DNA of 64,000 bases from a virus: IMG/VR virus record IMGVR_UViG_3300032097_000030. The stretch is one strand, 5' to 3'. A program made the translations under genes and the position numbers. The stretch's first letter is position 1. Each line of letters opens with the position of its first letter. Shown piece after piece: positions 1,225-63,287 of this stretch. The notes beneath the pieces are model-generated. The model searched no databases and was not told where the DNA came from. It saw only the letters and a list, made by a program, of their open reading frames with translations.

Positions 1225-2184
1225 TCACCTGGGTAAAAATTCACATTCAACTTCCGTCCCATCAAGCAGGGTTATAATTATTTTATCTCCTTCAATCACC
1301 GTCAGCTTCTCAACCAGTTTAAAGTATAAATCCATATCAAACTCTTGCTTAGGTTTAGCTTCTTTAATAATCCTCATAAACTGCTGCGCCTTGTATCTCT
1401 CAAGTAAATCCCCGCTGTCTTGCTTCTGCCACCATTTCTCCATGAAGTAATCTTTATTCTCCAGCATGGCATTAAAGGTATTTATAAATGCCTGGTATAA
1501 AACCCCATCATCCACATGCTTGTTCTCGCAGCCTTTTTCTCCTTTAGTAGCGTACTTATTATTGCACCGCCAGACTATCCTTCTCAGGCTATCATTGGTA
1601 GAGTTCCACACCTTTCTCCCAAAGGGGCTCCCGCAATGGCCGCAGATTACCCTGCCTGCAAAGGGATTATCTATGGTGGCGTAGTCTATCTTTTTAATAC
1701 CATGTTTCTCTGCAAAGGCTTTTCTTCTTTGCATCTCAAGCTGCACTGCTTCCCACATATCCTTATCGATAATGGCTGGGTGGCTTTCTTCTACATAGTA
1801 CTTTGGTACTTGGCCGTTGTTCTCCGTTCTTTTCTTTGTCAGAAAATCTACCGTATAGGTCTTTTGAAGCAGGGCATCCCCCTTATATTTTTCATTACTA
1901 AGCATCTTCCTAATGCTGCTTTCATACCATTTAGCTTTTCCGTTCCAGTTAAGGACTCCCTCATCTTCAAGCTCTCTAGCTATCCGGTTTGGCCCCTTTC
2001 CATCGAGGTAATCCTTATAAATTCTCCTAACAATCTTGGCCTGTTTTTTATTAATGACAAGGTTACCGTTTTCATCTTTATCGTATCCTAAAAACTTTGT
2101 ATGGTTTATATGAAGCCTGCCCTGTTCAAAGCGTCTTCTGATGCCCCATGTGGAATTTTCTGAAATGGACCGGCTTTCATCTTG
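1225..2184 (-). pseudogene. 3' half of a large serine recombinase gene, catalytic N-terminus missing
   Basis: Frame is open upstream of the track ORF (1225..1905) and reads QDESRSISENSTWGIRRRFEQG...FLGYDKDENG...LSNEKYKGDA...CGHCG zinc ribbon; it begins abruptly at the att-like arm and has no RVST catalytic motif. Confidence 0.85.
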
Positions 2185-2210
2185 TCTAATGACTTAAATA
2201 TTGATACAAT
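2157..2210. other. hybrid (attL/attR-like) recombination site: LSR coding arm + TG + attP-like arm
   Basis: Right half TG-TCTAATGACTTAAATA-TTGATACAAT matches the right half of 12454..12507 at 27/28; left half is LSR coding sequence. Confidence 0.65.
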
Positions 2211-2355
2211 TTAGCGTTATTGATTTACGCTAAAAAGTTTAGGATTAACGCTAAAAGGTGCACACCCCTATCAAGGGAAATTCAATAAGCTTAAAGTTTA
2301 AGACTTCTGCCCTCAACTCTCCTATAATAGAGATTTTTTTCTTAAGTGATATGGA
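2183..2355 (+). repeat. ~170-bp direct repeat, copy 1
   Basis: Aligns with 12480..12652: first 55 nt have 2 mismatches, remainder more diverged; internal TTTAGCGT/ACGCTAAA boxes. Confidence 0.9.
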
Positions 2356-2374
2356 TCAGGTGAAGTTAGTTTAT

Positions 2375-4339
2375 TCATTTTACAATACAATTCTGTAAAC
2401 CTATAGTTTCAATTTTAATACGTTGCTCATTAGTCAGTTTTGGAACCGCCCAAGCTAATAAATATTTTGGCCGAGTGCTTGCAACATATCCAAATCTTGT
2501 CGTCTCATCCTTATCATCTATCCAGTTTTCCCAATATCCCGTTTTTCCGCGTCCATCAGGTGATGAAACTAATAAGACGGCGTCATAAGAGCATCCCTTG
2601 ACGGAATGAATTGTATCAATTCGAAGCTTGGTAAACTCGTCACCTGATATTACTTGTATTGATATTGACGATGTTCCAGAAGGTGTCCTTAAAGTAGCAC
2701 TACCATATATTGATTTGTCAGGCCCCAATACTTGCTGTATATATTGGTCTACAATCTTTATTACTTCTTCTTTAGCGGAATGATACCAATCAGCATAAGT
2801 TTTATCATTAAACGCATTCACAACATCTGAAGCAACAAAACCATTTAAAACATCCCTTAACATCAATCGCCACTTAAATACGTCATCGAAAGTATCCGGA
2901 CAAAAATAATTATCCTTTCTCCCCCTGCTTTTTAACCACTTTTGAATTTGCAATCCTATAAGTAATAGGGCTTCCTTTTTGCTCTCCTGTGTGTCAATTT
3001 TCCACAACTGAACTGCGTAAATAATAGCATGCTGTTTATGGTCTAACGTTGTGCCAGTATTAAGTTTATTTTTTAAACTTGAATTCCGTGTCAATGCAAT
3101 AGCATCTTGTGGTGCTATTTGGTAGCGACGTAAAAGTTCTATGAAGAAATCAACTGCCTCTTCTTCATTCTCATATTCATAATATACCGCCGCGTTGCCA
3201 CAACACAAGTCTTGCGCATGTCCGATGATATCTCGGTTAATACTTTGCAATGCGCAAGCTACGTTAACAATTTTCTGGCAACTTCTAAAGTTGTCCCTTA
3301 GATACATTGTTTCGAACCCTTTTTCGGATATTTGCTTTATCAGGTATTGTGGCTTTGCATCTTTAAAAGAATAAATGGCTTGGTTTAAATCACCAATATA
3401 GTGAATGCTACTTCCTGCATTTTTAAGTAAGCCCAACATTTCTAGTTCAATAAAAGATAAATCTTGACATTCATCTACCATAATCAACGGGAATTTTTTT
3501 GCTAGCAATTTTACGATACCACCATCTTTTAAGCAACTTTTAGCAATTAAGTTCATATCTTCAAAACTTGCAAAGCCATCGCTCCAGAATTTCTTTTTAC
3601 ATTCCAATATCTTGTCTTTAAAGAAATTGTATTTGAATAGATAATCTTTTTTCTTTCGCTTACGTATTTTATTGATATTTTCTTGCATTGTAGGTTGTTT
3701 ATAATACTCTGAAATTTCTATACTATTACTTTCGCCAAAGTAAATGTACCACTTATTATCGCTATGTTGAAATGATATTTGATTGGCATAAATAGAACTC
3801 ATTCTGGGCGGAATAGGAAAATTAAGTGTGTAATTGTTGAGCCAAGTATTATCATAAATTTTCGTACTCTTATCTATTACGGAAAAAGATTTATCTGATA
3901 TTTCCCTATTCCTTTGAAAAAAAGCATATCCGAACTTTTGAGCTATATATCCGTGAATAAAACTTGCAAGAGTACCTATGTAATGCACTGTCGGAATATC
4001 ACGAGGATAAAACAGCCTAACTCTTTCCTTGATTGTGTTTGCGGCTTCATTCGTGAAAGTTAAAACTGCGATTCCAGAAGACTTCTGACTCCAACGACAT
4101 ATTTCAAAGGCAGTTTTCATCCCAAGGACTTCTGTTTTACCACTTCCGGCACAAGCCGACAAGTATGTGCATTTACTTACAGGCGAAAGAATATAGTCTA
4201 TTTGCTTTTCTGTCTTTTCACAAATTCTGCATTTATCATGTTTATTGCATTTACTATCGTTTAAAAATGTACATGTGTGTGCATCATCAGCTAAACATAG
4301 TGTCGCAGAAAGAATATTTTCCTTTTCTCTTTTAGACAT
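2375..4339 (-). CDS. gajB: UvrD/SF1 helicase, Gabija GajB-like, with Cys/His-rich N-terminal extension
   Basis: ACAGSGKT (Walker A), VLTFTN, DECQD, GDLNQAIY, NFRS, TIHSVKG, YVASTR; likely start ATG 4339 overlapping the stop of the upstream OLD gene. Confidence 0.75.
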   Translation of the reverse strand: MSKREKENILSATLCLADDAHTCTFLNDSKCNKHDKCRICEKTEKQIDYILSPVSKCTYLSACAGSGKTEVLGMKTAFEICRWSQKSSGIAVLTFTNEAANTIKERVRLFYPRDIPTVHYIGTLASFIHGYIAQKFGYAFFQRNREISDKSFSVIDKSTKIYDNTWLNNYTLNFPIPPRMSSIYANQISFQHSDNKWYIYFGESNSIEISEYYKQPTMQENINKIRKRKKKDYLFKYNFFKDKILECKKKFWSDGFASFEDMNLIAKSCLKDGGIVKLLAKKFPLIMVDECQDLSFIELEMLGLLKNAGSSIHYIGDLNQAIYSFKDAKPQYLIKQISEKGFETMYLRDNFRSCQKIVNVACALQSINRDIIGHAQDLCCGNAAVYYEYENEEEAVDFFIELLRRYQIAPQDAIALTRNSSLKNKLNTGTTLDHKQHAIIYAVQLWKIDTQESKKEALLLIGLQIQKWLKSRGRKDNYFCPDTFDDVFKWRLMLRDVLNGFVASDVVNAFNDKTYADWYHSAKEEVIKIVDQYIQQVLGPDKSIYGSATLRTPSGTSSISIQVISGDEFTKLRIDTIHSVKGCSYDAVLLVSSPDGRGKTGYWENWIDDKDETTRFGYVASTRPKYLLAWAVPKLTNEQRIKIETIGLQNCIVK

Positions 4340-6176
4340 TCTCTTCGATGCCTCCACAAGCCCATAATATTGCTCTCGCAATATATTCAGGTACAATATA
4401 CTCTTCGTCTATAGCTTCGGCTAGTGCATATGCAAACAAGCCTTTTCCTACTTGTGAATTATCAACATGCTTATAAATGAATTTAGCATCATCACGTAAC
4501 GAACATAAATCTGTATGGTAATTATTATGTTTGTCAACAATCTTTTGAAGATCAGGAGATACTGTTCCATCTGCAGTAGGCCATAGAGATTTCAATGTCT
4601 TTGCCATAACTGCTGGATTTAGCATAGCCATATCGTATTCAAACGTTTTGAGTGGCGATATAAAGAGTCTGGAATATTTATTACTATTGATATCATTAAT
4701 ATAATCGCATACAGAATTATTTCCTGTGACCATTTCTCCTTTTAATGGATAAGTTTCTTTATCAGGATCACGATCGCTCAAGCCTGCACAGAAGATTGGT
4801 ATATTCGGTCCTGAAGAATTATCAAAATTACAAAATAATTTCATGAAATACTTGAAATTTATACCGTTGATATTGATAACCGATATGCCCATTTCTTCAA
4901 TACTATTTGCTAATACTCGCTTCCCTTCAGCAACAGCTTTTCGATTATATTTTTTCAATACATTTACAGCTAATTTTGGAAGTATTAGTGCTTCAGCTAT
5001 GCCCTCAACCATGATAATTCCTCGCGAAAAAAGCATGGTTGATTTTGTTACATCCAGCCACCTGTTAATATATTTTTCAGAAACAGTGTCGCCAAAAACC
5101 TTTTGCTTCAGAGTTATCGCATTAATACATTCATCCTGTTCTGAAACATGAATAATTTTATTAACGCTAACTGATGAAGCTAACACAGGTGAGTGCGTAG
5201 AAACAATAATCTGTGCGTTGTGCAAAGTATCAGACAATGTTTCGAGATATTTGATAAATTTCACTTGTAATTGCGGATGCAAATGAGCTTCTGGTTCTTC
5301 GATTAACAACGCTGTAAATATGTCTGAATCTTTGATTAATTCCAATTCAGCAAACACAGTAGCAATATAAAGGAGATTATTATACCCCAAACTATTGGTG
5401 GCCAAATCTCTGAATTTCATTATATCTATTTCGCCGATTTTCGGAAAGAATACCATTTTTATATTTTCGACTATTTTATTGAATGTTGTTTCAGTAAACT
5501 GTAAATTGACACTTTGACCAAGTTCATTTCCAAGGGATTCTTTGATTTTTGTGTTAATACTCTTTTTTACCGAATCAATCTCAGCATATTTCCCATCGGT
5601 ATTTTCAGTAATGGCATCATTGAATTTTTTTACACTCTCGACAAGCGAATTAGTATTATCGCCATACTTTTTCTTTAAAAGCATGGCTAATCTCGACTTT
5701 CTGGCATTTGCTAGTTTATTTTCCGCATCACGCAATGGCGGCAAATATATACACTCAATACAGTCAAACGTATCTTCTTCAAAAATACTGGCAGATGAGT
5801 TGCCACCCCAATGTTTACGTTTGAAATAGCCAAATCGAGAGGATTTTTTCGATATCAATAAATGTAAATGTGCATTAAAATCCGCACCACACCATGTCAA
5901 AAAAGTGATTTTTTCATCTTCGGTCAAACGAGAAAATTCGGCGGTAATTTTCACCTCATCAGCACGGTTCTTTTTATCTAATTAACAATATAAGTCTCCT
6001 TCCGAAAAAGCAGTATTTGATTCTTTTTCTCTCAATAGTAGCCTAAGTGCATTAATTATTGCAGTCTTTCCAGAGCCGTTTTCGCCAACGAGAATATTTA
6101 ACCCTTTATTAAGGATGACGCTTGATTCCCGATTTGTGTTTTTGTAACCTTCAATCCGTAATTTAGAAATATACAT
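4332..6176 (-). pseudogene. gajA: OLD-family ABC-ATPase/TOPRIM nuclease (Gabija GajA-like) with in-frame TAA at 5982-5984
   Basis: Track ORFs 5982..6188 and 4332..5954 share a frame (GDLYC*LDKK); GENGSGKT Walker A, LGYNN, LIEEPEAHLHP, STHSP, TOPRIM VEGIAE, SDRD, TFEYD. Confidence 0.8.
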
Positions 6177-6251
6177 AGAATCCTCCATTACAATTTATTG
6201 AAGGTGAAGCTTTTTATAGCACAAAACATAATGTTTAAGATGGGTCTAATT

Positions 6252-7463
6252 CTAAGTTCTCGCTTCTTTAGCAATTCTTTCACGGTCATAATCATTCAAA
6301 TGAAGAATAAAATGATAGACAGTCATATGCTTAGCTTTATCTTCAGGAATTATATGAACACTCTTAAAAACATATTGCTGTTCTAAATCCTTTACTGAAA
6401 CTAATTTAAAATTATCGTCTACAAAATTGTTTAGGTTCTCCTTGATTTTATCTATAGCATCTTGCAAATTATATTTTTTGTTTATAGAAATAGTAATGCC
6501 GAAATGAAAATAATGATTTAAATAACCCAACAATTGTTTAAATTGATCTAAAAAATTTTCAATGTGTTTACTTTCAATAATGGCATAGTCTTCATCCCCA
6601 TAAATATATAAGTCAGTTTCCCCTAATGTTTTAATAGCTCTTCCCATCGGAAATTCTCTTGTAATTTGTAAATCATACTTAGATTTTAGAACTTCTTCGA
6701 TACTATCATGTATATCGTTGCTTATCTCGGTTTCACCACGATTACGAAATTCAACTACACGCTTTTGGAATTTACGAAGTACTTTATATAATTCAGTAAT
6801 CACTCCCTTTTCAATGTTAATAGCTTCTAATTTTGTTTTTGGACTCTGGGGTAGCTGTAATTTTCCTAAGTATTGTTTTCTCAAATCTACTGGCATGAGA
6901 TCTATATAATCATATAAATTTACATCTGGAAAAAACATTGAAAACAATTCTTCATTACGTAAAAACATCGTTAACATCTTACTTAATTGCGAGGGGAGAA
7001 AATCATGATCGCAGAAACAGAAATAATAATACGATTCATAATTTTGTATTTCTTTTAAAACATAATTTGTACCATCGTTAGTTAAATAATTTGGATTAGT
7101 TGATATTAGAGAAAAAAGGTCTTTGTTTATTGGATTAGGTATAAGCTCAGAGGGATTATCATTACAATCTTCCCACCATTGTAAAATAGTATATAAAAGA
7201 TACTCGTATTTTGGATTTATATAATATCTAAGTTCAGGGGATAAGATTAGTTCATATAATTCATCTACAAGACATCTACATTCTTGTGGTCTACGCATTA
7301 AATAATCTCTAGGTAGAAAACCATCCATCCCGAAATCTGGATCATTATTCAGATAATCTAATAGTACTCTTACAATTACTGCTAGGTTTCCATTTACATT
7401 TTCTGTGACTTTCATATCAATACTATTGTTTTCGCCATAATCTAAGAAATCTAAAGGAATCAT
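6252..7463 (-). CDS. 403-aa protein with C-terminal PD-(D/E)xK-like nuclease domain
   Basis: C-terminal GETDLYI...AIIESK...QLLGYL pattern; RBS GAGGGAG; AT-rich; co-oriented upstream of gajA. Confidence 0.55.
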   Translation of the reverse strand: MIPLDFLDYGENNSIDMKVTENVNGNLAVIVRVLLDYLNNDPDFGMDGFLPRDYLMRRPQECRCLVDELYELILSPELRYYINPKYEYLLYTILQWWEDCNDNPSELIPNPINKDLFSLISTNPNYLTNDGTNYVLKEIQNYESYYYFCFCDHDFLPSQLSKMLTMFLRNEELFSMFFPDVNLYDYIDLMPVDLRKQYLGKLQLPQSPKTKLEAINIEKGVITELYKVLRKFQKRVVEFRNRGETEISNDIHDSIEEVLKSKYDLQITREFPMGRAIKTLGETDLYIYGDEDYAIIESKHIENFLDQFKQLLGYLNHYFHFGITISINKKYNLQDAIDKIKENLNNFVDDNFKLVSVKDLEQQYVFKSVHIIPEDKAKHMTVYHFILHLNDYDRERIAKEART

Positions 7464-7696
7464 TAATTATCTCCCTCGTAATTGATGGAACCGGTTCTTT
7501 AAACATTTATCGGCTTCTCACTTGCAAAACTTGTGCAATTTTGCAATGAAACATCGTTAAGCTATTCTATATTTTCTTAAAAGTTTCCTGTTAATCATAA
7601 AAATTCCAAAGAAATTAAAGCTCCTTTCTTTTTTAATACACGGTATACAAACATTTCCTATGAAAGCAACCTTCCCCAAAAAACCCCTATAAAAAC

Positions 7697-7737
7697 AAAA
7701 AAAACCCGCAAGTTCAGCACCAAGCCAACCCTGCGGG
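7697..7737 (-). terminator. putative intrinsic terminator after LSR cluster
   Basis: CCCGCA/TGCGGG stem followed by T8 on minus strand. Confidence 0.5.
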
Positions 7738-7753
7738 ATTCTAATTTTCGTAT

Positions 7754-9184
7754 TCAAATTCTTGTTCCGGCAAGAAAAACAACCACCGGTTTGCCATTAA
7801 GCCCGATTTCAATATGGTCAAGTGTCTTAAGCATCAATTCATATGGCATCGTTTCAATGCACCCGACTTCTTCTATCATGCACACCAGTTCCTTAGCCCT
7901 ATATGCAGCCAAAGTATCGTCGCCGTTTATGGTTTGCTGCCGCTTTGGCAAAAAGCTCTCTTTATCATCAACCAGTTGGTTCCATGCTTTGATGAATTCC
8001 TTTTCTGCAATCTCTGCATAAATCCTTTGACCATTCCGGGAGGTATCCTCCCCAACCGGTTTATAGCGTCCAGCCTTGAAGTTACTGCAAATCCAGTACT
8101 TCTTTCCATAATCCTCTTTTCGCTTTGATTTTCGAAGCAAAAATGTATGTCCGCATTCTTTGCAGATGATTTTCCCGCTGAGGGGATACTCCTCACTATG
8201 CCGGTGAAACTTATTCATGTAGTGGTCTTTAGCAAACTGTTCCTGCCGCTTCATTTCAAGCTGCGCGCATTTCCATGTGTCTTTATCGATAATTGCGGGA
8301 TGGGTGTTCTCAAAATAATATTGTGGCAATTCCCCTTCATTCTTCACACGCCGCTTTGTTAAATAATCTGCGTTATAAGTCTTTTGAAACCTTGTATCGC
8401 CCTTCATCTTTTCATTAGTAAGAACTTTTGTGATATGGCTTGCACACCACTCCTTCCCGCCATAAGCCATCAGTACTTTCTCTGTGGTCAGGCGCTTGGC
8501 AATCTGGAAGGTACCGAACCCGTCAAGGAACTCCTGGTAGATCCGGCGCACTACTTTGGCTTGTTCTTCATTAATGATGAGATTACCGTCTTCGTCCTTG
8601 TCATAACCCAGGAATTTACCGCTTGGAATGCTTTTGATATTACCTCTCTCATACTTTCTGCGGATGCCCCATTTAACGTTTTCTGAAATAGCAAGGCTTT
8701 CGGTTTGCGCTACTGCTGAGATCAGCGTCAAAAGCATCTCTCCTTCGCTTCTCATGGTGTGGATATTCTCCTTTTCAAAATAGACATCCACCCCGAGGGC
8801 TTTCAATTCCCTAATACAGTTAAGACAATCAAGAGTATTGCGACCGAAGCGGGAGAGGCTCTTAGTAATGATCATATCTATATGGCCATCTCTGGCGTCC
8901 TGCATCAGACGGTTAAAAGCATCGCGCTTTTTAAGGTCAGTTCCGGAGATGCCTTCATCAGCGTAAATTCCGGCAAAAGAGTAATCAGGATGTGATCTTA
9001 TATAATTTTCGTAATAGGTTATTTGTGCATGATAGCTTGAAAGTTGCTCGTCACTGCCTGTTGAGACCCGGCAGTAAGCCGCAACTCTCTGTTTATTCGT
9101 TTCATTCTTCTCGCCATCCGTTGTACTGGGTAACGGGTATAAGACGGAAATCCTTCTCGGACCTCTTCTTTCTACGGAGGTCAT
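7754..9184 (-). CDS. large serine recombinase
   Basis: AYCRVST, ITKSLSRFGRN, recombinase domain LGYDKDEDG...NEKMKGD, CKECG zinc ribbon. Confidence 0.92.
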   Translation of the reverse strand: MTSVERRGPRRISVLYPLPSTTDGEKNETNKQRVAAYCRVSTGSDEQLSSYHAQITYYENYIRSHPDYSFAGIYADEGISGTDLKKRDAFNRLMQDARDGHIDMIITKSLSRFGRNTLDCLNCIRELKALGVDVYFEKENIHTMRSEGEMLLTLISAVAQTESLAISENVKWGIRRKYERGNIKSIPSGKFLGYDKDEDGNLIINEEQAKVVRRIYQEFLDGFGTFQIAKRLTTEKVLMAYGGKEWCASHITKVLTNEKMKGDTRFQKTYNADYLTKRRVKNEGELPQYYFENTHPAIIDKDTWKCAQLEMKRQEQFAKDHYMNKFHRHSEEYPLSGKIICKECGHTFLLRKSKRKEDYGKKYWICSNFKAGRYKPVGEDTSRNGQRIYAEIAEKEFIKAWNQLVDDKESFLPKRQQTINGDDTLAAYRAKELVCMIEEVGCIETMPYELMLKTLDHIEIGLNGKPVVVFLAGTRI

Positions 9185-10304
9185 GATTCACCTCCTCCAG
9201 AACCATAGGCTCAGTTATTGCATAATCCTTCGAAAGCGCTTCTAATATTCCATCTGCTATGCGCATCCCTATACATACGGCCTTACCTTTTTGCTGATAG
9301 GTTGCACAAATCCAGCTTACATAGCCGCCTTGATGGATGACTCTGATGAGCGATGCTCCACAGTACGGACACTTTAATAAGCCGGTAAAGGGATATTCTT
9401 TCTTTTTTCTGCCTTCACGGATGGTTTGGGCCGCCTTCCACTTTGTTCTTGGAATAATTGCCGGATGGGCATTTTCAACGTAGTACTTGGGCTTTTGCCC
9501 TTTATTTAAAACTTGCTTACCCTCCTCATTAACGAAGGCTTTTTGCATCAAACAGTCGCCGGTATATTTCTCGTTGGAGATGATACTTAAAATCCGGTGC
9601 GAACGCCATGGATTCTTAGTATAGGTAGGGACACCTTCGTCATTTAGTATCTGCGCAATCTTATACCCGGAAATAACATTTAGATAGAGATTATAAATCC
9701 GCTTGACGATTTCTGCCTGCTTTTTATTTATGACCAGACTGCCATTTTCGTCCCGGTCGTAACCCATGAGGCGATTAACGTCTACCATCGCCTCTCCGCG
9801 CTTGAATTTGTTCTGCATGGCCCATTGAACATTGGCACAGACCGACTTTCGTTCTTCTTCCGCGATGGCTGCAAGGACAGTGAGCATTAATTCTCCCTCA
9901 GCATTTATGGTGTTGATGTTCTGCTCTTCGAAGATGACACCCACACCTGCATCTTTTAATTCGCGGACATATTTAAGCAGCATTAGAGTATTCCTTGCAA
10001 ATCGGGAAACCGACTTTGTAATGATAATATCTATTTCACCTGCTCTTGCTTTTTCAAGCATAGCCTTTAGGCCCGGCCGGTCTATTTTTAAGCCGGATAT
10101 ACCCGTGTCTGAGAAAATGCCGCAGAATTCATACGCAGGATTTGACTTTAGCTTTCGTTCATAGTATTCGGTCTGGTTTTGGAGGGAATTCATCTGCCCG
10201 GAGTGTTCAGTTGATACACGTACATAGGCACAAACTCTGATTTTTGGAGGTACGGTGAAGGGATTGAGGCTTCCTTTTATTTCAGTTATCTTTCTTTTCA
10301 CCAT
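9102..10304 (-). CDS. large serine recombinase
   Basis: AYVRVST, TKSVSRFARN, NEKYTGD, CPYCG. Confidence 0.92.
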   Translation of the reverse strand: MVKRKITEIKGSLNPFTVPPKIRVCAYVRVSTEHSGQMNSLQNQTEYYERKLKSNPAYEFCGIFSDTGISGLKIDRPGLKAMLEKARAGEIDIIITKSVSRFARNTLMLLKYVRELKDAGVGVIFEEQNINTINAEGELMLTVLAAIAEEERKSVCANVQWAMQNKFKRGEAMVDVNRLMGYDRDENGSLVINKKQAEIVKRIYNLYLNVISGYKIAQILNDEGVPTYTKNPWRSHRILSIISNEKYTGDCLMQKAFVNEEGKQVLNKGQKPKYYVENAHPAIIPRTKWKAAQTIREGRKKKEYPFTGLLKCPYCGASLIRVIHQGGYVSWICATYQQKGKAVCIGMRIADGILEALSKDYAITEPMVLEEVNHDLRRKKRSEKDFRLIPVTQYNGWREE

Positions 10305-10306
10305 GG

Positions 10307-11899
10307 TTATTCAATCCCCCATGGCAATTCAGTTCCGTCTTTAAACTGAAAAGTTATCTCTTCATTGGATTTTACAACCACTGCGTTAACAGTCGCACAC
10401 CAAAGGCTCTCGTTAAACTCGGTCAGTAGTTCTTTTTGCTCTTTAAGTTGGCGGATGAAGGCGTTCATCTGATTGCGCCTGGCTTTTAAGATTGCGATTT
10501 CGCTATTAAGCTCCTGCTTCCTGTTTTGCAGCTCGTTATATCTGGTAGCAAGGGGGGTGTACCTCTTGGTGTATTCCTTCTGGTCTATTGCTGACCTTGC
10601 GTTTTCAGCAATCAGCTTTTCCACTGCCGCTTCAATGACTGTGCATTCTTCATTGATTTTTTGGCTCTCCTTCTCCTGCTTTTTGAAGTCTGTAATCGTT
10701 ACAATTATTTCATTATAGGTGGATAAAATCTCATCTTTATTTTCAATAAGGCTGTTGAAGGCCTCGACAAAGGCTCGTTTCAGGACTTCTTCTTTCAGGT
10801 GAGGGGTGTTACAATAGGTTCTCTTTCTGAACTTATTATTGCACTGCCAAACGGTGTTGGCGTACTTGGTGGTGGAGTGCCATATCTTTCTGCCGTAAAA
10901 TCCGCCACAGTCCCCACAAACAATCCGGCTGGCAAAGCAGTTAATGGCGCTTGTATATCTTCCTGCCGCTTTACGCCGCCTGAACTCTTCTTGAACCAGT
11001 TCATATGTCTCGGGGCTTATGATTGCCGGATGACTGTTTTCCACATAGTACTGGGGAATCTCACCCTCATTAATTTTCTTTTTCTTGGTAAGGAAATCCA
11101 CTGTAAATGATTTCTGCAGCACAGCATCGCCTTTATATTTTTCATTCTGAAGGATACTCGTTACGGTACTGGGTTGCCATTTCTGTTTACCAGCAGGAGT
11201 CTTGATACCTTTCTCTGTAAGATGCTTTGCTATACCCGAAGGCGTCTTACCTTCAAGAAAGAGTTTGTAAATCAACCGGACAAACTCAGCTTCTTTTTCG
11301 ACAATTTTCGGCAAGCCATCTTCACCTTTTTCGTAACCAAGGAACTGTCCGTATGGCAGGCTGACTTTACCGTCGGCAAACCGTTTGCGCTGACCCCAGG
11401 TGACATTAGCGCTTATTGACCTTGATTCTTCTTGAGCCAAGCTTGACATAATTGAGATCAATAGCTCACCCTTACTGTCTAATGTGTAGATGTTCTCCTT
11501 TTCAAAATAAACCTCCACGCCTTTTTCCTTAAGCTGTCGGACAGTAGTCAGCGTATCAACAGTGTTCCTGGCAAATCTGGACACCGACTTGGTAATAATC
11601 AGGTCGATTTCACCGGCCAGTGCGTCAGCTATCATCTTGTTGAAACCATCACGCTTTTTTGTGCTTGTAGCTGAAATACCCTCATCAGCGTAGACCTCAA
11701 TGAACATCCAAGCTGGATTTGATTTGATGTGTCTAGTGTAATAATCCACCTGCGCCTCGTAGCTTGAGAGCTGTTCATCATTGTCCGTTGAAACCCTTGC
11801 GTAGGCAGCAACCCGTTTTGTTGCTGGAGTTCCGGCAGCTATGGGTGCAAAAAGTCCTGCTGTTGCCGGAATAACTTTTACTGCTCTTGCTGGATACAT
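10307..11899 (-). CDS. large serine recombinase, paralog of 20429..22018
   Basis: AYARVSTDNDEQLSSY, TKSVSRFARN, NEKYKGDA, CGDCG, coiled coil; long identical stretches with 20429..22018. Confidence 0.93.
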   Translation of the reverse strand: MYPARAVKVIPATAGLFAPIAAGTPATKRVAAYARVSTDNDEQLSSYEAQVDYYTRHIKSNPAWMFIEVYADEGISATSTKKRDGFNKMIADALAGEIDLIITKSVSRFARNTVDTLTTVRQLKEKGVEVYFEKENIYTLDSKGELLISIMSSLAQEESRSISANVTWGQRKRFADGKVSLPYGQFLGYEKGEDGLPKIVEKEAEFVRLIYKLFLEGKTPSGIAKHLTEKGIKTPAGKQKWQPSTVTSILQNEKYKGDAVLQKSFTVDFLTKKKKINEGEIPQYYVENSHPAIISPETYELVQEEFRRRKAAGRYTSAINCFASRIVCGDCGGFYGRKIWHSTTKYANTVWQCNNKFRKRTYCNTPHLKEEVLKRAFVEAFNSLIENKDEILSTYNEIIVTITDFKKQEKESQKINEECTVIEAAVEKLIAENARSAIDQKEYTKRYTPLATRYNELQNRKQELNSEIAILKARRNQMNAFIRQLKEQKELLTEFNESLWCATVNAVVVKSNEEITFQFKDGTELPWGIE

Positions 11900-12250
11900 G
11901 AAGCTTTCCTCCTTTCCAAATATTTTAGTTGTCTCTCCCGCGCCTGTTGTCGGGCTTTCTCATTCCAGCTTTCACTACGTGATTTGTTCTGCCACTCCTT
12001 TTGGACAGTCTGGCCGTCACGAAAAACAAATACCAGAAGGTTAGAATCAATAGCCTGTATTTCCTTAATCTTTTGCTCAAAGACCGTCTCATCAAACTTC
12101 GTAAGCCCTAAAACCTCTGTAACTATCGAAAGCAGGATGTCTTCGGGGATTTGCTTGGTGTGGCAGAATGCCTTGCCGAATTTCAGGTAAGTAGAGCAGT
12201 TCCACGAAATCCGTCCGTGTGTGGTCTTGCGTTTGTAGTTTTTACCGCAT
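11878..12250 (-). pseudogene. C-terminal fragment of an LSR (paralog of the end of 21897..23324)
   Basis: CGKNYKRK...WNCSTYL...TKQIPEDILLSI...KEWQNKSRSESW nearly identical to the prophage copy. Confidence 0.85.
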
Positions 12251-12400
12251 ACTTCTCGCATGGATTTTTTTGAATCTAGAGCAAGTATGTATGAATTATG
12301 TATGACTCTATCCATGATAGCATCTGCGATGGTAGGATCGGGGAATAGGTCATACCATTTTGTGTGAGCGATTTGCCCTGAAAGCACGGTAGCGTTTCTA
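12251..12400 (-). pseudogene. istB: IS21-family helper ATPase C-terminal remnant fused in frame to the LSR fragment
   Basis: SGQIAHTKWYDLFPDPTIADAIMDRVIHNSY...KSMRE is the typical IstB C-terminal motif (W...DPT.ADAI.DR..H). Confidence 0.75.
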
Positions 12401-12453
12401 GACGACCATTTTACCCCTTAAAACAGGAAAACCCCTTGTATCAAGGAGTTTTC

Positions 12454-12507
12454 ATTGTATCAAAGTTTGAGTTTTTATTTGTCTAATGACTAAAATATTG
12501 ATACAAT
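12454..12507. other. intact attP-like site for a large serine recombinase
   Basis: Perfect 10-bp inverted repeat ATTGTATCAA (12454-12463) / TTGATACAAT (12498-12507) symmetric about TG 12480-12481, the point where homology to the 2183 copy begins. Confidence 0.65.
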
Positions 12508-12652
12508 TTAGCGATATTGATTTACGCTAAAAAGTACGGGATTAACGCAAAAAAGTACACACCCCCCGGGCGAAATTCAATAAGCTTAAGGTCTTAGAAA
12601 TTCGTCCCTCAACTCTCCTAAAATAGAAGTGTTTTCTCTTCGAGTGAAAGGA
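12480..12652 (+). repeat. ~170-bp direct repeat, copy 2
   Basis: Aligns with 2183..2355. Confidence 0.9.
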
Positions 12653-12834: not shown

Positions 12835-13818
12835 TTAAAATCTAATCGGTATTTTTGAATGATTAACTTTTACATCGTAACCTTTATTAGTCAATTGCAT
12901 TAAAAGCCTTTTTTGCTTTTTCCCATTAAAAAGCGGAGAAACTGTAATTTCACATATTGCCATTTTATCAAAAAGAGGTACAAAAATATACTTTGGAATC
13001 CCAGCGTTACTACCATATCTAAGTTCAGTTTTGGCAAATGGACTTAATGCTGTTTTATCTTCATTTAATGGTAAGTGAATTGCAAGCCTTACCTCTTTCT
13101 CATGTGAAAAATTCTTTGATTTAAAAGCACATCGCCATTTAAACAGTTCGCATGAAATTGCTAATTTAGTTTTTGATAATTGTGTATCATCTTTATGACG
13201 GTATCTATATAATGCTTGTACAAAATCTTTCAATATATCGTCTTTTTCATGGTCGTCATATTCAACAACAATTAATTCGCTTAAGAAATTTCTCTTATAA
13301 GGATGATAGTGAAAGGCTTCCTTCAATTTTAAAGAAGAAAAACCTAAGTTCCAACCCTCATATTGGCCGTTTTTAAGATAATAATTCCACATTGGTAATG
13401 AGTCTGAGAGCGTTGAAAAACAGAATATATATGTAACATATTCAGATATGCAACATTCTTTATATTCTACTCCATCTATTATTAGGGGTGGAATTGCTTT
13501 ATGGATAAAAGGAAATTCCTTAAAGGGTAAAACATTAATTATTGAATTGAAATAATCTTTATCTATATTTTTGTTTTCCAATAACTGCTTACATATATTC
13601 TTATAATATTCAATTATATAACTTCCATCTGTTGTATCATTTACACAATCTATTCTTGTAAATCTTAATTCTATGTTTTCATTTTTCAAAATACCATCTA
13701 CACCCTTTGGCGATGTATAATGATACTGTAATTTATCATTAGGAATAACAGAGACTGATTGGAGTAGTTCTTGTTTCAATTTAATATCTTCTATACAACT
13801 GCAATCAGAAAAGTCCAT
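12835..13818 (-). CDS. DUF2971-like protein
   Basis: YHYTS..G..GIL, ND..DG, FCFS...DSLPMWNYY, K...F..E.EVR motif series. Confidence 0.75.
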   Translation of the reverse strand: MDFSDCSCIEDIKLKQELLQSVSVIPNDKLQYHYTSPKGVDGILKNENIELRFTRIDCVNDTTDGSYIIEYYKNICKQLLENKNIDKDYFNSIINVLPFKEFPFIHKAIPPLIIDGVEYKECCISEYVTYIFCFSTLSDSLPMWNYYLKNGQYEGWNLGFSSLKLKEAFHYHPYKRNFLSELIVVEYDDHEKDDILKDFVQALYRYRHKDDTQLSKTKLAISCELFKWRCAFKSKNFSHEKEVRLAIHLPLNEDKTALSPFAKTELRYGSNAGIPKYIFVPLFDKMAICEITVSPLFNGKKQKRLLMQLTNKGYDVKVNHSKIPIRF

Positions 13819-13895
13819 TTCTAGCCACCCTTAAAACAAATTGATCTTTTTATACTAATAGTCATTCGCATTATTACCCTAATGAGAAGTACAAT

Positions 13896-14025
13896 ATTTA
13901 TATATCGTCCCCGGAATTCCTGACGTGTCCACCCCAATAGGGTGCGTAATACTAAATCCCTAAACACATCCCAAATCTGCAAGTCTTGTGAAAAAGGGCT
14001 GGAGTGCTCGTGTTATATGCCGTTC
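13896..14025. repeat. degenerate attC-like site downstream of HEPN gene
   Basis: Gene-sense strand: GGCATATAAC...AGCACTCC...CGTCAGGAATTCC...GACGATATAT; its far end resembles 14888..14919. Confidence 0.45.
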
Positions 14026-14043
14026 TCAGCCTAAAATTAATAT

Positions 14044-14865
14044 CTAAACGTGATAATGATTTCTGTGATATGAATTCGTATTTATAAAACTAACTGCAAA
14101 AGTATCTGCAGCAATATTCACTAAACTTAGTAAACAATAAGACTTTTTGCATTCTTCTATCGCTTTTTCAGCATTTAATGTCGGGCTCCTTAATATCTGT
14201 TTTTTGCCGAGATCAAACTCATCATTTCCATCTAACATATACATTAAAGGTGAGAATGCATGAGTTACTTCATCTCTCCATCTCTTAATATCCCCATATC
14301 TACGTTTAGCTTCAAGTAATACTTTCCAATCATCTCTATTTTTTAGTTTAAAAGGATCTCCATCTAGAATTCGGCGTTTATTATCGCCATATTTGAGTTT
14401 TATTGAGTCAATAACATTGTTAAAATAAAAAGGAGCATCAATTATTCCATAAAACACAAAAGCTAAATATAGGCCTACACTATCCAATAAACTACAGCTT
14501 CTTACTTGAAAATCACCATAGCTTTGCCAAAAATGTTGACTAAAGTCAGCTGATTTATTTTCGATAGCAGATATATAAGGTTCTATGCTTCCAGTTTTAT
14601 AAAAAAGAAGTAACATACCCATAGCACGCTCAATCTCTCTAAATCTGTACGCATTATTAAGCCACAAATTTATGAATGTCTCAAATTCATTATCTGCTAT
14701 TTTTGCTTCAGCAAATATTTCATCCTCATCTTTTCCGTTTAATAACTTTTCTTTCCTATTCATAATGTCCCTAGGAATTACAAATTCACTTAACTCCTTA
14801 TTAATCTGTTTGTCTAAGTTTTCAACAATCCTCTTTCTCAAATCTATTAATTCCACATTATTCAC
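14044..14865 (-). CDS. HEPN-domain protein (Cthe_2314-like), putative RNase
   Basis: RDEVTH (RxxxxH) followed by AFSP; helical composition. Confidence 0.65.
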   Translation of the reverse strand: MNNVELIDLRKRIVENLDKQINKELSEFVIPRDIMNRKEKLLNGKDEDEIFAEAKIADNEFETFINLWLNNAYRFREIERAMGMLLLFYKTGSIEPYISAIENKSADFSQHFWQSYGDFQVRSCSLLDSVGLYLAFVFYGIIDAPFYFNNVIDSIKLKYGDNKRRILDGDPFKLKNRDDWKVLLEAKRRYGDIKRWRDEVTHAFSPLMYMLDGNDEFDLGKKQILRSPTLNAEKAIEECKKSYCLLSLVNIAADTFAVSFINTNSYHRNHYHV

Positions 14866-14887
14866 CTCATTGGTTTAATAAATATTG

Positions 14888-14919
14888 GAATGGCATGTAA
14901 CGTCTTGGTGTTCCCGACG
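14888..14919. repeat. partial attC-like site upstream of HEPN gene
   Basis: Gene-sense CGTCGGGAACACCAAGAC-GTTACATGCCATTC; 12/14 inverted match to the downstream core. Confidence 0.45.
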
Positions 14920-15076
14920 CCCCTGATCTTACGCTCATGGCCGGAACCGGTTTCCTGCTATCTTTATCTATTTTGTCATCTTTATTCAAACAACAATCCT
15001 TATAAATTATTCCACTACCACACGGACAGGGCTCAGTCTTTCGTATATAAATTAGTAAAAAACAAAATAATTCTCC

Positions 15077-15649
15077 TTACATTTCAATAATATAGAATTT
15101 ACTATGGGCGTTTAAATTTTCCCATACAAATTCATGTCTACCCGATAGAGATATGAAGTCGACATTCTTTGCCCGACCGGTAGGTTTGTAAATGTCTCCA
15201 TAGACAGCATATTCTTGTCTGAAATATCTATAAATACCATCGTTTATTCTTCCTTCGTAAAAGGGTCTATCCGATACTAGAACAACACAGGCAGTTTTAT
15301 TAAATCCCCGATCCTTAAGTTCTTCCATAAATTTTATGTCTTTTGCAAAAGAGTACATTTGCTCAGGATACTGACCATTCATTGGACATTTCATCTCTAT
15401 AGCATACTTTTCATGTTTGTCTTGTGTAAAGATTGTAACATCAATTTCCTTTTTTATCGTTTTGTTATCTCGTGTGAAAAATGAAACATTACGCTCAAAT
15501 TGCACTTTATACTGCGGCAGCATGGTTCTTAAGTAAATCCCCAGTTCATGTACCAGGCTGAATTCATTATAAATTTCTATGTTTTTGTCTCTAACAAACT
15601 TAAAAAAGCTTTCAACTAACCTTTTCAATTCTAACAACAAAGCCACCAC
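15077..15649 (-). CDS. PD-(D/E)xK-like nuclease-fold protein
   Basis: YNEFSLVHELG...ERN...EIDV...AIEMK. Confidence 0.55.
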   Translation of the reverse strand: MVALLLELKRLVESFFKFVRDKNIEIYNEFSLVHELGIYLRTMLPQYKVQFERNVSFFTRDNKTIKKEIDVTIFTQDKHEKYAIEMKCPMNGQYPEQMYSFAKDIKFMEELKDRGFNKTACVVLVSDRPFYEGRINDGIYRYFRQEYAVYGDIYKPTGRAKNVDFISLSGRHEFVWENLNAHSKFYIIEM

Positions 15650-15740
15650 CTGTAATCACAAAGTCTTCCCCATTGATTTTCTGAAACAATCGTACAATCT
15701 AGATATCCATAGAAAATTAGACTAAGCCCCCCCTTTGGGC

Positions 15741-16196
15741 TCATAAAAGAGATGTTATCATCTTTTCAAATAAGTATGGACGAAGCCTCGGCATGTTTTT
15801 CTTGGACAAATTAAGCCCATACTCTGGTTTGCTTTTTAACTCTTCATAGTCCTTATCGCAAAAGAGGTCATTGGGGGCTTTCCAAGTAACTGCAGGAATA
15901 AGATAAGCGTCCGGCAGCCTGCCATCTTCAAATATAAATAGTACAAGATAATTATCCTGGTTAGTTATGTTCCACTTTTCCTTTTACATAAAAACATAAT
16001 TGGTTTGACGTACTGACTTTACTTGAATCTCGAAAAATCGTCCTTCCTTCGTTTTTGCTATAAAATCTATTCCATGATCATCAACCTCTGATGTATATAC
16101 CTCAAATCCGTAAGAAGCAAATTCCATCTTCGCATAATACTCCGCATATCTACCAAGCTGCAGTTTATTTAACCGCGACCAAATTGTATTAGGCAT
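15741..16196 (-). pseudogene. DUF4365-like PD-(D/E)xK nuclease with in-frame TAA at 15984-15986
   Basis: G..AE...DDHGIDF...EIQVKS; frame continues after the stop (YVFM*KEKWNI...SKPEYGLNLSKK) to TGA 15741. Confidence 0.7.
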
Positions 16197-16375
16197 CTCA
16201 ATTCTCCATTAATAAATTTTGTTGAGCAAATTTCACCATATACATTTTTATCTTACCACCTTTTCCCATATTTTTTAAGAGCCTATTTGTCCAACAACTC
16301 ATTAGTCCGATCTACAGTTGGATCAAACCTGCCAGCCTTTTTTATTCCCCAATAAATTCAAGTGGTATTTTTACC

Positions 16376-17191
16376 TCATAACGCAGTATAATCGATAATC
16401 TGTTCAGGTGTAATAGTAACCCCACTCCCCATATAAGCAATAATTTCCGAACCGCCACGTTCGAAACTTCTGCTAACGGCATTTGAAATCAGCCATTTCT
16501 TAAGTATTAACCTACTCTCCATATCTTCCCAATAATTGTCTTCATAATCATAAAAAGAATACCAAGCAAATTGATCGAAATCAGCAAGAAAGGTAACAAT
16601 ATACCCTTTGCTCTTTGTGCACCAAATTTTTTCAACCTCTTTTATGCGTGGAATAAGACTTGATAAGTTCATTAAAAATTCCGGTCTGCAATGAATATCT
16701 GTTCCATAACGGGCAATATCATCTATTGAAAAAAAGGCATTCACTTGCGGATCGAAATATATTTTTCTAGCAACTTCTCTAATGCGTTCTTCTTCAGATG
16801 TAAGCCTAAATCGACCCCTAAATTTATCATAGTCAATATCAATTACTTTCTCGCCTATAACGAGGGCTTTATTCTCGATATCAAATTTAACACCATATTC
16901 TAATAATAAATTCCTTAATGTTGTCTGCTCCGACAAAACCGCCTGTAAATTTTTTATCCCTTGCATTTTAATTTCCAAACAATCATCCCAGTTAGATGTT
17001 ACGTGAAGAGCCTTATATTTTAAGTGATCAATGTTAGTCGAGTCGATGTAGTCCAATCGTTTATTCCAAAATGAATCAAAATCATTATTGCATTCGATTA
17101 TATACTCATCTATAAAACCGCTACCTGTAATATTAAAAAAATCTTGAATGAACTTGAAAGCTGCGTCCGGTGTGCTAATATCAAAAATCAA
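16376..17191 (-). CDS. hypothetical protein, possible ADP-ribosyltransferase-like fold
   Basis: 271-aa ORF; LHVTS...IKMQGIKNL and VNAFFS resemble H-x-T...I...G-L and aromatic-S elements. Confidence 0.4.
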   Translation of the reverse strand: MIFDISTPDAAFKFIQDFFNITGSGFIDEYIIECNNDFDSFWNKRLDYIDSTNIDHLKYKALHVTSNWDDCLEIKMQGIKNLQAVLSEQTTLRNLLLEYGVKFDIENKALVIGEKVIDIDYDKFRGRFRLTSEEERIREVARKIYFDPQVNAFFSIDDIARYGTDIHCRPEFLMNLSSLIPRIKEVEKIWCTKSKGYIVTFLADFDQFAWYSFYDYEDNYWEDMESRLILKKWLISNAVSRSFERGGSEIIAYMGSGVTITPEQIIDYTAL

Positions 17192-17227
17192 TTGATCATC
17201 ACCAAATTCTTAAAAGATTTAACTTTA

Positions 17228-18889
17228 CTACCACCAATGCTGGCCAAACTTTTTTAACGCTTTCTGATCCTCGTTTTTTTCGTGCTCCCGCTTACCAAAC
17301 AACTCATCTTCTCTAGCCACAATTGGATCCAACCAATCAGCTTTTTTCTTTGCCCAATCTATCCAGTTCACCGTTTCTTCATCCATTCCATCTTGGCTAG
17401 CAGAATCCTCCATAGCTTTGACATAGGCTCTTATTCTAGACGCTCTCTCATAGTCCAAGGCCGCGTTCTCCAGCGCAATTGTCCGCTCGACTTCTTCATT
17501 ATATCGGTTCCGGCGTTCTTCCTCCCGCCTCTCTTCTTCCATACGTTTACGCTCGGCTTCTTCACTGGCTTCACGCTCAAGTCTAAGAACTTGGGATTCT
17601 TCGTAAAGTGCTATTAAAATATCACCTAGCCTGGATTCAATAGACATCTTATCGGTTTCTCTGAAATGTCTGCGTTTCCGAATACTAACTCTCAGCCGCC
17701 CATTGAATACGTAGTCATACTTTCTGATTTGGGGTTCACTGGCCCATGTATTATGGCGTTTTGCGTCTTCATAAAGAAGCAAGTCCTTTGCTTCTTGCCT
17801 AGTGATTTCATGCTTTATTTTATCTTGGGACTCAGAAACTTCAAAATGCACATACTCACCTCTAATCTGGAGAGATAGATCATCATTGACAGTACCACCT
17901 AGGTTTTCAACCTGTCGAAAAAGAGCATCAAGTATGCGATAAACTCGTGGGAGGGTTTCATTTGAAATAACTCCGGCAAGAAAGGGCGGACGTTTAGAAT
18001 AGTAATAATTATTGAAGCCTTTTTGTGCGCCTTCAGGTCTCATGTTATTTTTATTCCATTCTTTGACCACAGACTTGTAGGCTGTTATCTTTTTGTGCAG
18101 TTTCACATTTTCAGGTGATACCTTGATTTGTTGTGCAGCAAGTAGTACTTTTTCTCTCTCGGCTTCTGATAAAAAAGCGAGCGGCTGCGAAGCTGTATTA
18201 GTTTCCTTTTCTCCTTCAAAGGTTCTTGCCCCAACTATTTCAGTGACCCCCTTTGTTTTTGGGAGCGGGGTCTTTTTGGGTTTTGCCCCAGCACGAATCT
18301 TTGACCAGTAGCCACGGGGTGGAACAGGTACATTAAGCGATTTACAGATTTTATGTATTGCAACGTCTGACACTCCATATTGAGCAGCAACATCAACAAC
18401 CGGATTTGCCCACACCTGTTCATATAATTTTTCACGGTTATAAATGTTATGCTTACCATCCACAGTACGATAAATATGCTGCTTGTCACGAGGTGTACCC
18501 GAACCTTCAGTGACCAGCTGATTATCAGTTGCCTCAGATTCTTCTGTAGTGTTAACTTCGGAATTTAAGTTTTCCTCAACTTTGACCTCTTTACTAACTT
18601 CGGTAACAGTAGTAAATACGGCAGTGCGTTTTGACCTTTTCGGAGCCGAGTTGTCGGGCAGCGTAACTTCAGTAATCGAGGATTCCGGCAACGGAGTTTT
18701 TGTTACGGTTTTGCCGAAATTCAATTGAGTCCAGTATCCCGATGGTGGGTATGGGATATTTGTTTCTTTGCACAACTTAAGTAATTTGGCATAAGGCACA
18801 TTATATTTCTTGGCGACACCGGACACGGAGATCTCCCAGATCTCATTATACAATTGTTCTCTGGATAATTTTGTGGTTTGCTCTGTCAA
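17228..18889 (-). CDS. hypothetical mobile-element protein with two PPxGYW HTH-like repeats and a coiled coil
   Basis: SREQLYNEIW...PPSGYW and NREKLYEQVW...PPRGYW; E/R-rich coiled coil; C-terminal WIDWAKKKADWLDP. Confidence 0.75.
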   Translation of the reverse strand: MTEQTTKLSREQLYNEIWEISVSGVAKKYNVPYAKLLKLCKETNIPYPPSGYWTQLNFGKTVTKTPLPESSITEVTLPDNSAPKRSKRTAVFTTVTEVSKEVKVEENLNSEVNTTEESEATDNQLVTEGSGTPRDKQHIYRTVDGKHNIYNREKLYEQVWANPVVDVAAQYGVSDVAIHKICKSLNVPVPPRGYWSKIRAGAKPKKTPLPKTKGVTEIVGARTFEGEKETNTASQPLAFLSEAEREKVLLAAQQIKVSPENVKLHKKITAYKSVVKEWNKNNMRPEGAQKGFNNYYYSKRPPFLAGVISNETLPRVYRILDALFRQVENLGGTVNDDLSLQIRGEYVHFEVSESQDKIKHEITRQEAKDLLLYEDAKRHNTWASEPQIRKYDYVFNGRLRVSIRKRRHFRETDKMSIESRLGDILIALYEESQVLRLEREASEEAERKRMEEERREEERRNRYNEEVERTIALENAALDYERASRIRAYVKAMEDSASQDGMDEETVNWIDWAKKKADWLDPIVAREDELFGKREHEKNEDQKALKKFGQHWW

Positions 18890-63061: not shown

Positions 63062-63287
63062 TAAAGTAACCACATATACAAACAGCATCATTGCCCTCTT
63101 CCCTAATATCCTAGAAGCACTGGAAGAAAGCGATATGATACCAAAAGAACTATTTGAACAAGTATCTTTAGGTAAAGGAACTATGGGGGATTTTTTAAGC
63201 GCCTTAGATTGCTTGTTTGCATTAGGCCAAATTGAAATTATTGAGGAAGGGAGGGTACTACACTATGTTAAAACAGATTCACTGTGA
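63036..63287 (+). CDS. ABC-three-component middle component
   Basis: LPNK...F..ALDCLFALG.I; small winged-helix-sized ORF overlapping both neighbours. Confidence 0.65.
   Translation: MRCSMRLPNKVTTYTNSIIALFPNILEALEESDMIPKELFEQVSLGKGTMGDFLSALDCLFALGQIEIIEEGRVLHYVKTDSL

Follow-up and report, generated by a model that had tools for sequence, protein, structure and literature searches.

We found that the truncated large serine recombinase (LSR) gene near the left end of the analysed window, a 64,000-nt stretch of the IMG/VR virus record IMGVR_UViG_3300032097_000030, ends at a genuine crossover-type hybrid site, where the remaining part of the gene (X′) and the right arm (P′) of a palindromic attP-like site meet at a shared central TG. 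Sequence comparison across genomes indicates that the same dinucleotide, read as the CA of a conserved Gln codon on the gene strand, is a recurrent crossover hotspot inside LSR genes of at least two subfamilies. The partners joined to this hotspot are of three kinds: the end of a target gene (tmRNA or rumA), a tmRNA-like stub, and the P′ arm. A limited literature search found no description of this LSR intragenic hotspot.

The X′ gene runs from the Gln codon of the AQDES motif to its stop codon. Pfam recognized the Recombinase domain (PF07508, 6.5e-25) followed by the zinc ribbon (PF13408, Zn_ribbon_recom, 1.2e-12), and it found no Resolvase catalytic domain (PF00239), the one with the nucleophilic serine, in X′. 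With the N-terminal catalytic domain absent, X′ is a fragment derived from an LSR and not a functional LSR. In an alignment with A, B, C, E and F, the five LSRs of the window that are full length, its first residue falls on the Q of AQ(E/D)ES, where helix E begins, and by the open reading frame list its first in-frame start codon comes not before 1905. The nearest homologues are LSRs of 443/470 aa, with 73–81% identity overall. Domain content and the alignment start at Q thus agree with the initial annotation, which had placed the cut in the L-A-Q/D-E-S region of the gene.

Read on the plus strand, the LSR part stops with ..CATCT, after which come the TG and a 26-nt arm. Positions 2183–2210 and 12480–12507 both start with TG and are identical at 27 of 28 positions, which bears out the proposal that the cut gene joins the right arm of the palindrome at the same central TG. 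The likeness extends to the right over about 158 bp of non-coding sequence (2182–2339 versus 12479–12635, 84–91%), and its left limit is the T before the TG. All three junctions of the locus, X′–TG–P′, P–TG–P′ and P–TG–tmRNA, share this TG, as anticipated for a crossover-type joint (Table 1). To the left of X′ lie an RCC1/SLH surface protein gene and then, in succession, IS3, IS66, IS110 and a trio of tyrosine recombinase genes. We found no P′-type end in that IS-rich region, which would be the left side of element 0, the presumed owner of X′. The trio (contig L058, 6473–9706) consists of genes for proteins of 341, 327 and 411 aa and sits beside a shortened IS66 transposase gene.

Table 1. Coordinates of the features at the X′ junction and in the neighbouring elements.
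Feature	Position	Strand	Evidence or remark
X′, C-terminal 319 codons of an X-type LSR	1225–2184	minus	ORF list, Pfam, alignment
TG crossover dinucleotide	2183–2184		CA of the Gln codon on the gene strand; recurs at 12480–12481 and at the tmRNA junction
P′ arm (2185–2210) and conserved non-coding end module of element 1	2185–2339	plus	Repeated at 12482–12635
Element 1, 10.3-kb Gabija island, prophage-remnant-like	2185–12479		P′ end, Gabija, 403-aa gene, LSRs A, B, C, D′, P end
Gabija pair, GajB (2375–4396) and GajA (4332–5954)	2375–5954	minus	PADLOC, Pfam
403-aa gene between Gabija and the LSR array	6252–7463	minus	No Pfam or PADLOC match
Full-length LSRs A (7754–9184), B (9102–10304) and C (10307–11899)	7754–11899	minus	Pfam Resolvase, Recombinase, Zn ribbon
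D′, C-terminal remainder of an F-like LSR that is broken within the zinc ribbon	11878–12387	minus	Joined to IstB-like fragment
attP-like site (P arm, TG, P′ arm), joint of element 1 and the prophage	12454–12507	plus	54-bp imperfect palindrome
Element 2, 58.9-kb siphovirus-like prophage, extends to ~71341	12482–64000		Pfam; P arm abuts tmRNA 3′ end

In window orientation, the locus consists of X′, TG, element 1, TG, element 2, TG and the tmRNA gene. A second copy of the P arm, with one mismatch, lies about 7.3 kb past the right end of the window in the complete 3.72-Mb genome, and it leads through TG into the 3′ end of the tmRNA gene (..CCTCCACCA, here as its reverse complement). ARAGORN placed the tmRNA at 1144–1500 of contig L004, with the P arm at 1501–1526 on the opposite strand, showing integration at ssrA: the distal P arm lies directly against the 3′ CCA with which the tmRNA gene closes, and the terminal CA of that gene forms the other border of the array. 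With up to three mismatches allowed, the window holds one P arm, and the complete genome has no third copy. Since the sole other copy of the left arm abuts the tmRNA gene, the integration target of the array is ssrA and not the LSR gene, contrary to the proposal that the LSR gene had been the target of the palindromic element; the cut also occurs elsewhere without an arm of the palindrome. X′ itself occupies the position expected for the chromosomal flank of the tmRNA gene. A search for empty tmRNA sites in the four genomes available for the same class did not yield the native flank: the tmRNA flanks were not syntenic, and one genome carried a different LSR element.

Element 1 contains a Gabija system, identified by adjacent genes for GajA (ATPase and OLD/TOPRIM; PADLOC 1.2e-181) and GajB (UvrD-like helicase; 5.9e-160), and its four-LSR array is intact in two relatives (L042 and L043). 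At its P end, an IstB-like fragment at 12256–12381 scored 2e-5 in Pfam, just above the cut-off, and an event of the IS21 type is suggested to have removed the phage body of this element. The fragment belongs to a 169-aa open reading frame shared with D′ (12256–12387, minus strand), of which the first ~44 residues match the C-terminal part of IstB, the IS21 helper.

Element 2 begins with its P′ end and solo defence or defence-like genes, followed by LSR E (20429–22018), LSR F (21897–23324) and the lysis and tail genes, and continues through capsid, portal, TerL, replication and defence genes, including a type III restriction-modification system, to its P end. The five cargo genes next to the P′ end (12835–18889) have no PADLOC match and a single Pfam match (DUF2971); a second DUF2971 gene lies at the other end of the prophage (L048, 672–1679). 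The tmRNA-proximal end (61826–64000 and L048) encodes a HamA/DUF1837-like protein with an ABC-3C CTD11 domain, an AAA ATPase, and the type III restriction-modification pair (Mod, 772 aa; Res, 835 aa). Decay grows with distance from the tmRNA gene, from an intact-looking prophage to a remnant and then to an LSR stub with an IS-rich region, and this gradient fits serial insertion next to the tmRNA gene. Contigs from public sequencing runs all show the assembled arrangement, which, for contigs, has no bearing on excision; upon inspection, an apparent loose end at 12481 in these data was simply the tmRNA junction contig.

The joint between the two elements has the layout of an LSR att site: about 50 bp, imperfect inverted arms, and a 2-bp core common to all three junctions. 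Its outer inverted repeats are perfect over 10 bp around the TG, and the two arms agree at 19 of 26 positions. The outer 10-mer has 4 copies in the window against 0.28 expected. An additional exact copy of this motif (ATTGTATCAA, plus strand) at 2610–2619 inside gajB has no partner at the right spacing and is probably due to chance.

Diverse Bacillota carry the exact 26-mer P′ arm, which was found in 7 contigs of genomes and in about 6 of metagenomes; it was absent from IMG/VR, and the site region had no match in INPHARED. Its left neighbours fall into three classes, namely the P arm, a terminator hairpin and an LSR gene. The first class, with an intact P–TG–P′ site, includes L028, L031 (C. 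beijerinckii), L034/L036, L037 and, roughly, L025, and the same layout is present twice in L046. The terminator hairpin, found in L027, L033 and L057 (C. butyricum), is likely the native flank. Megaplasmids of Peptoclostridium acidaminophilum and C. butyricum share the layout of element 2, with a P′ end, a few kb of defence cargo, E-like and F-like LSRs, a SHOCT gene, lysis and phage genes. That of P. acidaminophilum has two P–TG–P′ joints 9 kb apart with no LSR in between, and in that of C. butyricum the P arm continues across the TG into a short tmRNA-like stub. Stacking in tandem, including defective members, is a habit of this element family; the tandem accretion that the initial annotation had envisaged is thus borne out both by the two head-to-tail elements at ssrA and by the intact P–TG–P′ joints in relatives.

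The same breakpoint recurs in other genomes, as the initial annotation had asked: in a metagenome contig, in two further genomes, in a second relic, and in about 10 of the best 120 homologues of X′. In the metagenome contig L038 (identical to L030), the LSR gene reads ..GGCTTTCTTCT, followed by TG and the P′ arm. This LSR, an open 118-codon fragment, is 74% identical to C and 44% identical to X′; because it is nearer to C than to X′ and its reading frame is open, the genes diverged while working and the cuts were independent. In Candidatus Formimonas warabiya (G032, L039), a tmRNA-3′-like end of ~25 nt runs into ..(K)EESWSISENVTWGQRKRF.. of a C-like LSR, giving a tmRNA–CA–LSR joint with one substitution; that this stretch is a real tmRNA gene was ruled out. 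In a third genome (G185, L056), a 22-nt tmRNA-like end (..CCGCCTCCAC) passes at CA into QEESRSISENVTWG.., which belongs to a C/E-like LSR. This last case came from a pattern designed for the junction of a tmRNA end with QEES in 400 genomes, and is therefore not an unbiased sample; the pattern had 6 matches, and the LSR junction was present in this one only. The second relic, in the same genome as X′ (G000, ~3,371,190–3,372,330; L047, ~7194–8331), is 52% identical to X′, contains stops and begins with QEES; at a distance of ~740 bp there is an rlmD/rumA-type methyltransferase gene, which is intact.

Among the best 120 homologues of X′, about 85% are full length, including prophage copies in chromosomes, and in about 10 the LSR sequence sets in at QDES, preceded by foreign residues. 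Five of these (P0156, P0220, P0151, P0177 and P0208) follow the C-terminal tail of rumA/rlmD (..FP(H/Q)TG-like), as in ..DMFPQTG/QDES of P0156 (L062) and ..MFPHTG/QDES of P0220, and the remaining ones follow MPKER/MPKDR, AICQGR or MT. In rumA the CA opens the His codon of ..PHTGH.., and in the LSR genes it opens the Gln codon. The junction lies elsewhere in only 2 of the best 120, with a third such case in G405, where a second X-type fragment breaks 13 codons upstream and provides a counter-example to strict use of the site. The truncated LSRs of L040 and L044 also break at other positions. A second cluster of breakpoints near DFLTKKK (L038, L056 and G032) was dropped, as the positions differ by ~12 nt.

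The initial annotation had further predicted a reciprocal joint, in which the 5′ half of the LSR gene meets the left arm of the palindrome; this joint is absent from both the window and the complete genome. Searching the whole genome by tblastn with all seven LSR sequences, we found no N-terminal LSR fragment. The two hybrid products expected of a conservative recombination are therefore not both present in the complete genome. Four near-complete genomes (G000, G032, G405 and G406) together hold at least five C-halves cut at the Gln codon and no matching N-half. One true reciprocal product is known for an X-type LSR: in P0268 (L063), the N-half ..ILSSLA continues into HVESVVQLIRS, the tail of rumA, so conservative integration via the intragenic site also occurs. 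Most other proteins ending at SSLA are nonsense mutants and were not counted as N-half junctions. One example is an X-type LSR of L060, from an 88-member protein cluster: at 930–960, C-to-T changes have turned its Gln codon into TAG and the following Arg codon into TGA, so the gene looks split though it is not. For short N-terminal fragments of C-type LSRs, none of 120 listed diverges at the Gln codon, in a ranking that favours longer matches.

We put at about even the chance that X was cut at the intragenic hotspot by an excision-type event in which the N-half was lost, with stacking at ssrA following or combined with that event. X′ would be the relic of an older LSR-bearing element, in which the intragenic site stood in for the distal att site of the element and recombined with a neighbouring att site. 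The excised circle would have taken the N-half and the phage body, and the C-half of the LSR gene would have stayed with whatever lay beyond it; the generic product would be the target, CA, the LSR C-half, cargo and the P′ end. By one route, X would have been cut against the tmRNA-side site to give X′–TG–tmRNA, as in G032 and G185, and elements 1 and 2 would have inserted by the tmRNA gene afterwards; by another, the attP-like joint of a tandem array would itself have been the partner in the cut of X. The LSR genes of intact relatives sit between the lysis module and the cargo and are co-directional with the target gene, so that the intragenic and target-side att sites are direct repeats and recombination between them would remove the phage body. 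Contig L068 has a layout like that of the window, with two LSRs, cargo, a short arm and an X-type C-half. We favour intramolecular excision over integration because the N-halves are missing and the geometry fits; the intramolecular nature of the reaction, the responsible enzyme and the order of events are what we infer here.

Against this excision-type reading, the assembled contigs, with their single arrangement, showed no excision or deletion product, and the intragenic site only weakly resembles the att arms. The reciprocal product P0268 and the lack of a P′-type end for element 0 also count against it. The initial annotation had noted a loose resemblance of the arm, read toward the centre, to codons for T-I-L-S-S-L-A-Q. 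For A, B, C, E and F the resemblance does not exceed chance; it holds weakly for two of three X-type genes, in which the P′ arm scores in the top 1–3% of positions. If real, this likeness would mean that the N-side of the intragenic site mimics a P′ half-site, as a surrogate in an excision-type reaction would need; we treat it as a lead, not as support. To our knowledge, canonical phage LSRs recombine attP with attB only and not hybrid sites. The proposed reactions, and accretion itself, involve hybrid or surrogate sites, and would thus need relaxed site choice.

Extending this reading beyond the present locus, we tentatively propose, with confidence somewhat short of even, that LSR genes of several subfamilies share a Gln-codon site used as a surrogate att site by their own or co-resident recombinases, resulting in self-truncation and in cargo fixed by tmRNA or rumA. 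Recurrent, precise self-truncation would eject or split the element and leave behind the DNA-binding half together with the defence cargo. If so, the elements would have a built-in mechanism for grounding prophages and laying down defence islands.

The reading of the initial annotation, in which the attP of element 1 integrated in trans into a resident LSR gene acting as attB and the reciprocal half, with everything behind it, was lost later, is in our view unlikely. The joint does have the expected form of an attP × attB product, a second LSR type is cut at the identical codon and joined to this arm, and no prior event is required. However, the reciprocal half is absent from the complete genome, and the P arm of element 1 leads into the P′ arm of the prophage and not into LSR sequence; for these two reasons, integration in trans needs at least two further precise events. 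Moreover, C-halves cut at the same codon have tmRNA-like or rumA partners without a P′ arm, so the cut in X′ does not require the palindrome of element 1. The accompanying idea that a rival's recombinase was thereby disabled is speculation.

Somewhat more doubtful is that the integrase gene split itself, the intragenic site being the true attP of an X-type element that integrated at or near ssrA and later lost the end with the N-half; elements 1 and 2 would then have inserted between the tmRNA gene and X′. Both reciprocal rumA products are known for X-type genes (..FPQTG/QDES in P0156, L062; ..ILSSLA/HVESVV in P0268, L063), and Ambroset et al. place one direct repeat inside the serine integrase gene in rumA-targeting ICEs (PMC4701971). 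A gene that is split upon integration is at odds, however, with the best 120 X-type homologues, about 85% of which are full length even in chromosomal prophage copies, and with the ratio of at least five C-halves to no N-halves in the four near-complete genomes. Most apparent SSLA-ending proteins are the nonsense mutants noted above, and X-type genes usually have rumA-like partners, not tmRNA.

An ordinary illegitimate or microhomology-mediated deletion, with TG on both sides by chance, is very improbable. Both parental sequences would end in T-rich ..TTG, and the neighbouring D′ was truncated by an unrelated event involving the IS21-type fragment, but the microhomology amounts to 3 nt only and the same nucleotide is broken at no fewer than five independent loci and in about 10 database proteins, whereas other truncated LSRs (L040, L044 and the second copy in G405) break elsewhere. 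Least credible of all, to the point of being nearly negligible, is that a DDE transposon, such as an IS21-like or Tn7-like one, struck the LSR gene and that the conserved end is its terminal inverted repeat: the end begins with TG, the arms are imperfect inverted repeats and an IstB-like fragment lies at 12256–12381, but only TG is repeated at the element borders, where a DDE element should leave a duplication of at least 3 bp (4–5 bp in the refuting condition named by the initial annotation), elements 1 and 2 have no transposase gene beyond that fragment, their ends abut each other and the tmRNA CCA without a spacer, and they carry 2–4 LSRs in a layout that relatives share.

Among known systems, SCC elements stack at rlmH. 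In Dehalococcoides, tandem genomic islands with CcrB-like serine recombinases occupy ssrA (McMurdie et al. 2011, PMC3146451). As in both of these, LSR islands are stacked here head-to-tail where an RNA-related gene present in one copy has its 3′ end; defective members occur among them, and accretion is proposed. The Dehalococcoides borders are 20-bp repeats of the ssrA end with insertion at the T-loop (PMC3146451), whereas the crossover here is at the terminal CA; also unlike those islands, the present array has a 54-bp palindromic attP-like site at its internal joint and is bounded on its outermost side by a cut LSR gene. Streptococcal rumA ICEs have one direct repeat in rumA and the other in the serine integrase gene, with exchange of the 3′ parts (PMC4701971). 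They resemble the present case in having an att repeat in the integrase gene, and X-type homologues are here fused to the rumA tail. The exchange in those ICEs alters the C-terminal ends and the frame (PMC4701971), whereas the cut described here is in frame, at the start of helix E, and splits the catalytic domain from all DNA-binding domains. A further difference from the streptococcal ICEs is that tmRNA ends and the attP arm also serve as partners.

SSV1-type archaeal viruses likewise have a recombination site within the recombinase gene: attP lies inside a tyrosine integrase gene that is split when the virus integrates, and both halves persist, in contrast to the mostly solitary C-halves found here. 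Phage large serine integrases such as those of A118/LI, Bxb1 and phiC31 use an attP of ~50 bp with imperfect dyad symmetry and a 2-bp crossover, producing hybrid attL and attR. The site described here is alike in size, symmetry, crossover and hybrid products; unlike those systems, which are strictly attP × attB, the present family shows frequent tandem arrays, which imply use of hybrid sites, and has 2–4 LSR genes per element. Accretion of ICEs and CIMEs (ICESt1/ICESt3 type) and "grounded" prophages are known from tyrosine recombinase systems. There, as here, defective elements are kept by active ones and cargo stays while the prophage body is lost, but in the present case the grounding event appears to be site-specific and inside a recombinase gene.

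If LSR genes hold a crossover hotspot, this would explain the N-terminally truncated "recombinase family" genes that lie by tmRNA, rumA and island borders, and would provide a site-specific route from prophage to fixed defence island. It would also mean that these enzymes have an off-target site within the integrase gene itself, which is relevant to genome engineering with them. The site at 12454–12507 and the tmRNA end form a testable site pair for a tandem-stacking family; canonical serine integrases should not stack.

The element ends have additional repeat features. The end modules at 2211–2262, 12508–12560 and ~1600–1690 of L004 each have 2–3 direct CGCTAAAAAG-like copies followed by GTGCACACCCC, and related G/C-rich GTGCA repeats are present in the ends of L025, L027, L028 and L059. 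These repeats may be binding sites for accessory proteins. In L026 and L035 (a Clostridium MAG), a partial copy of P′ (..TGTCTAATGACTTAAATATTGACAGACTC) directly precedes the full arm, and this doubled arm may be a scar of repeated recombination.
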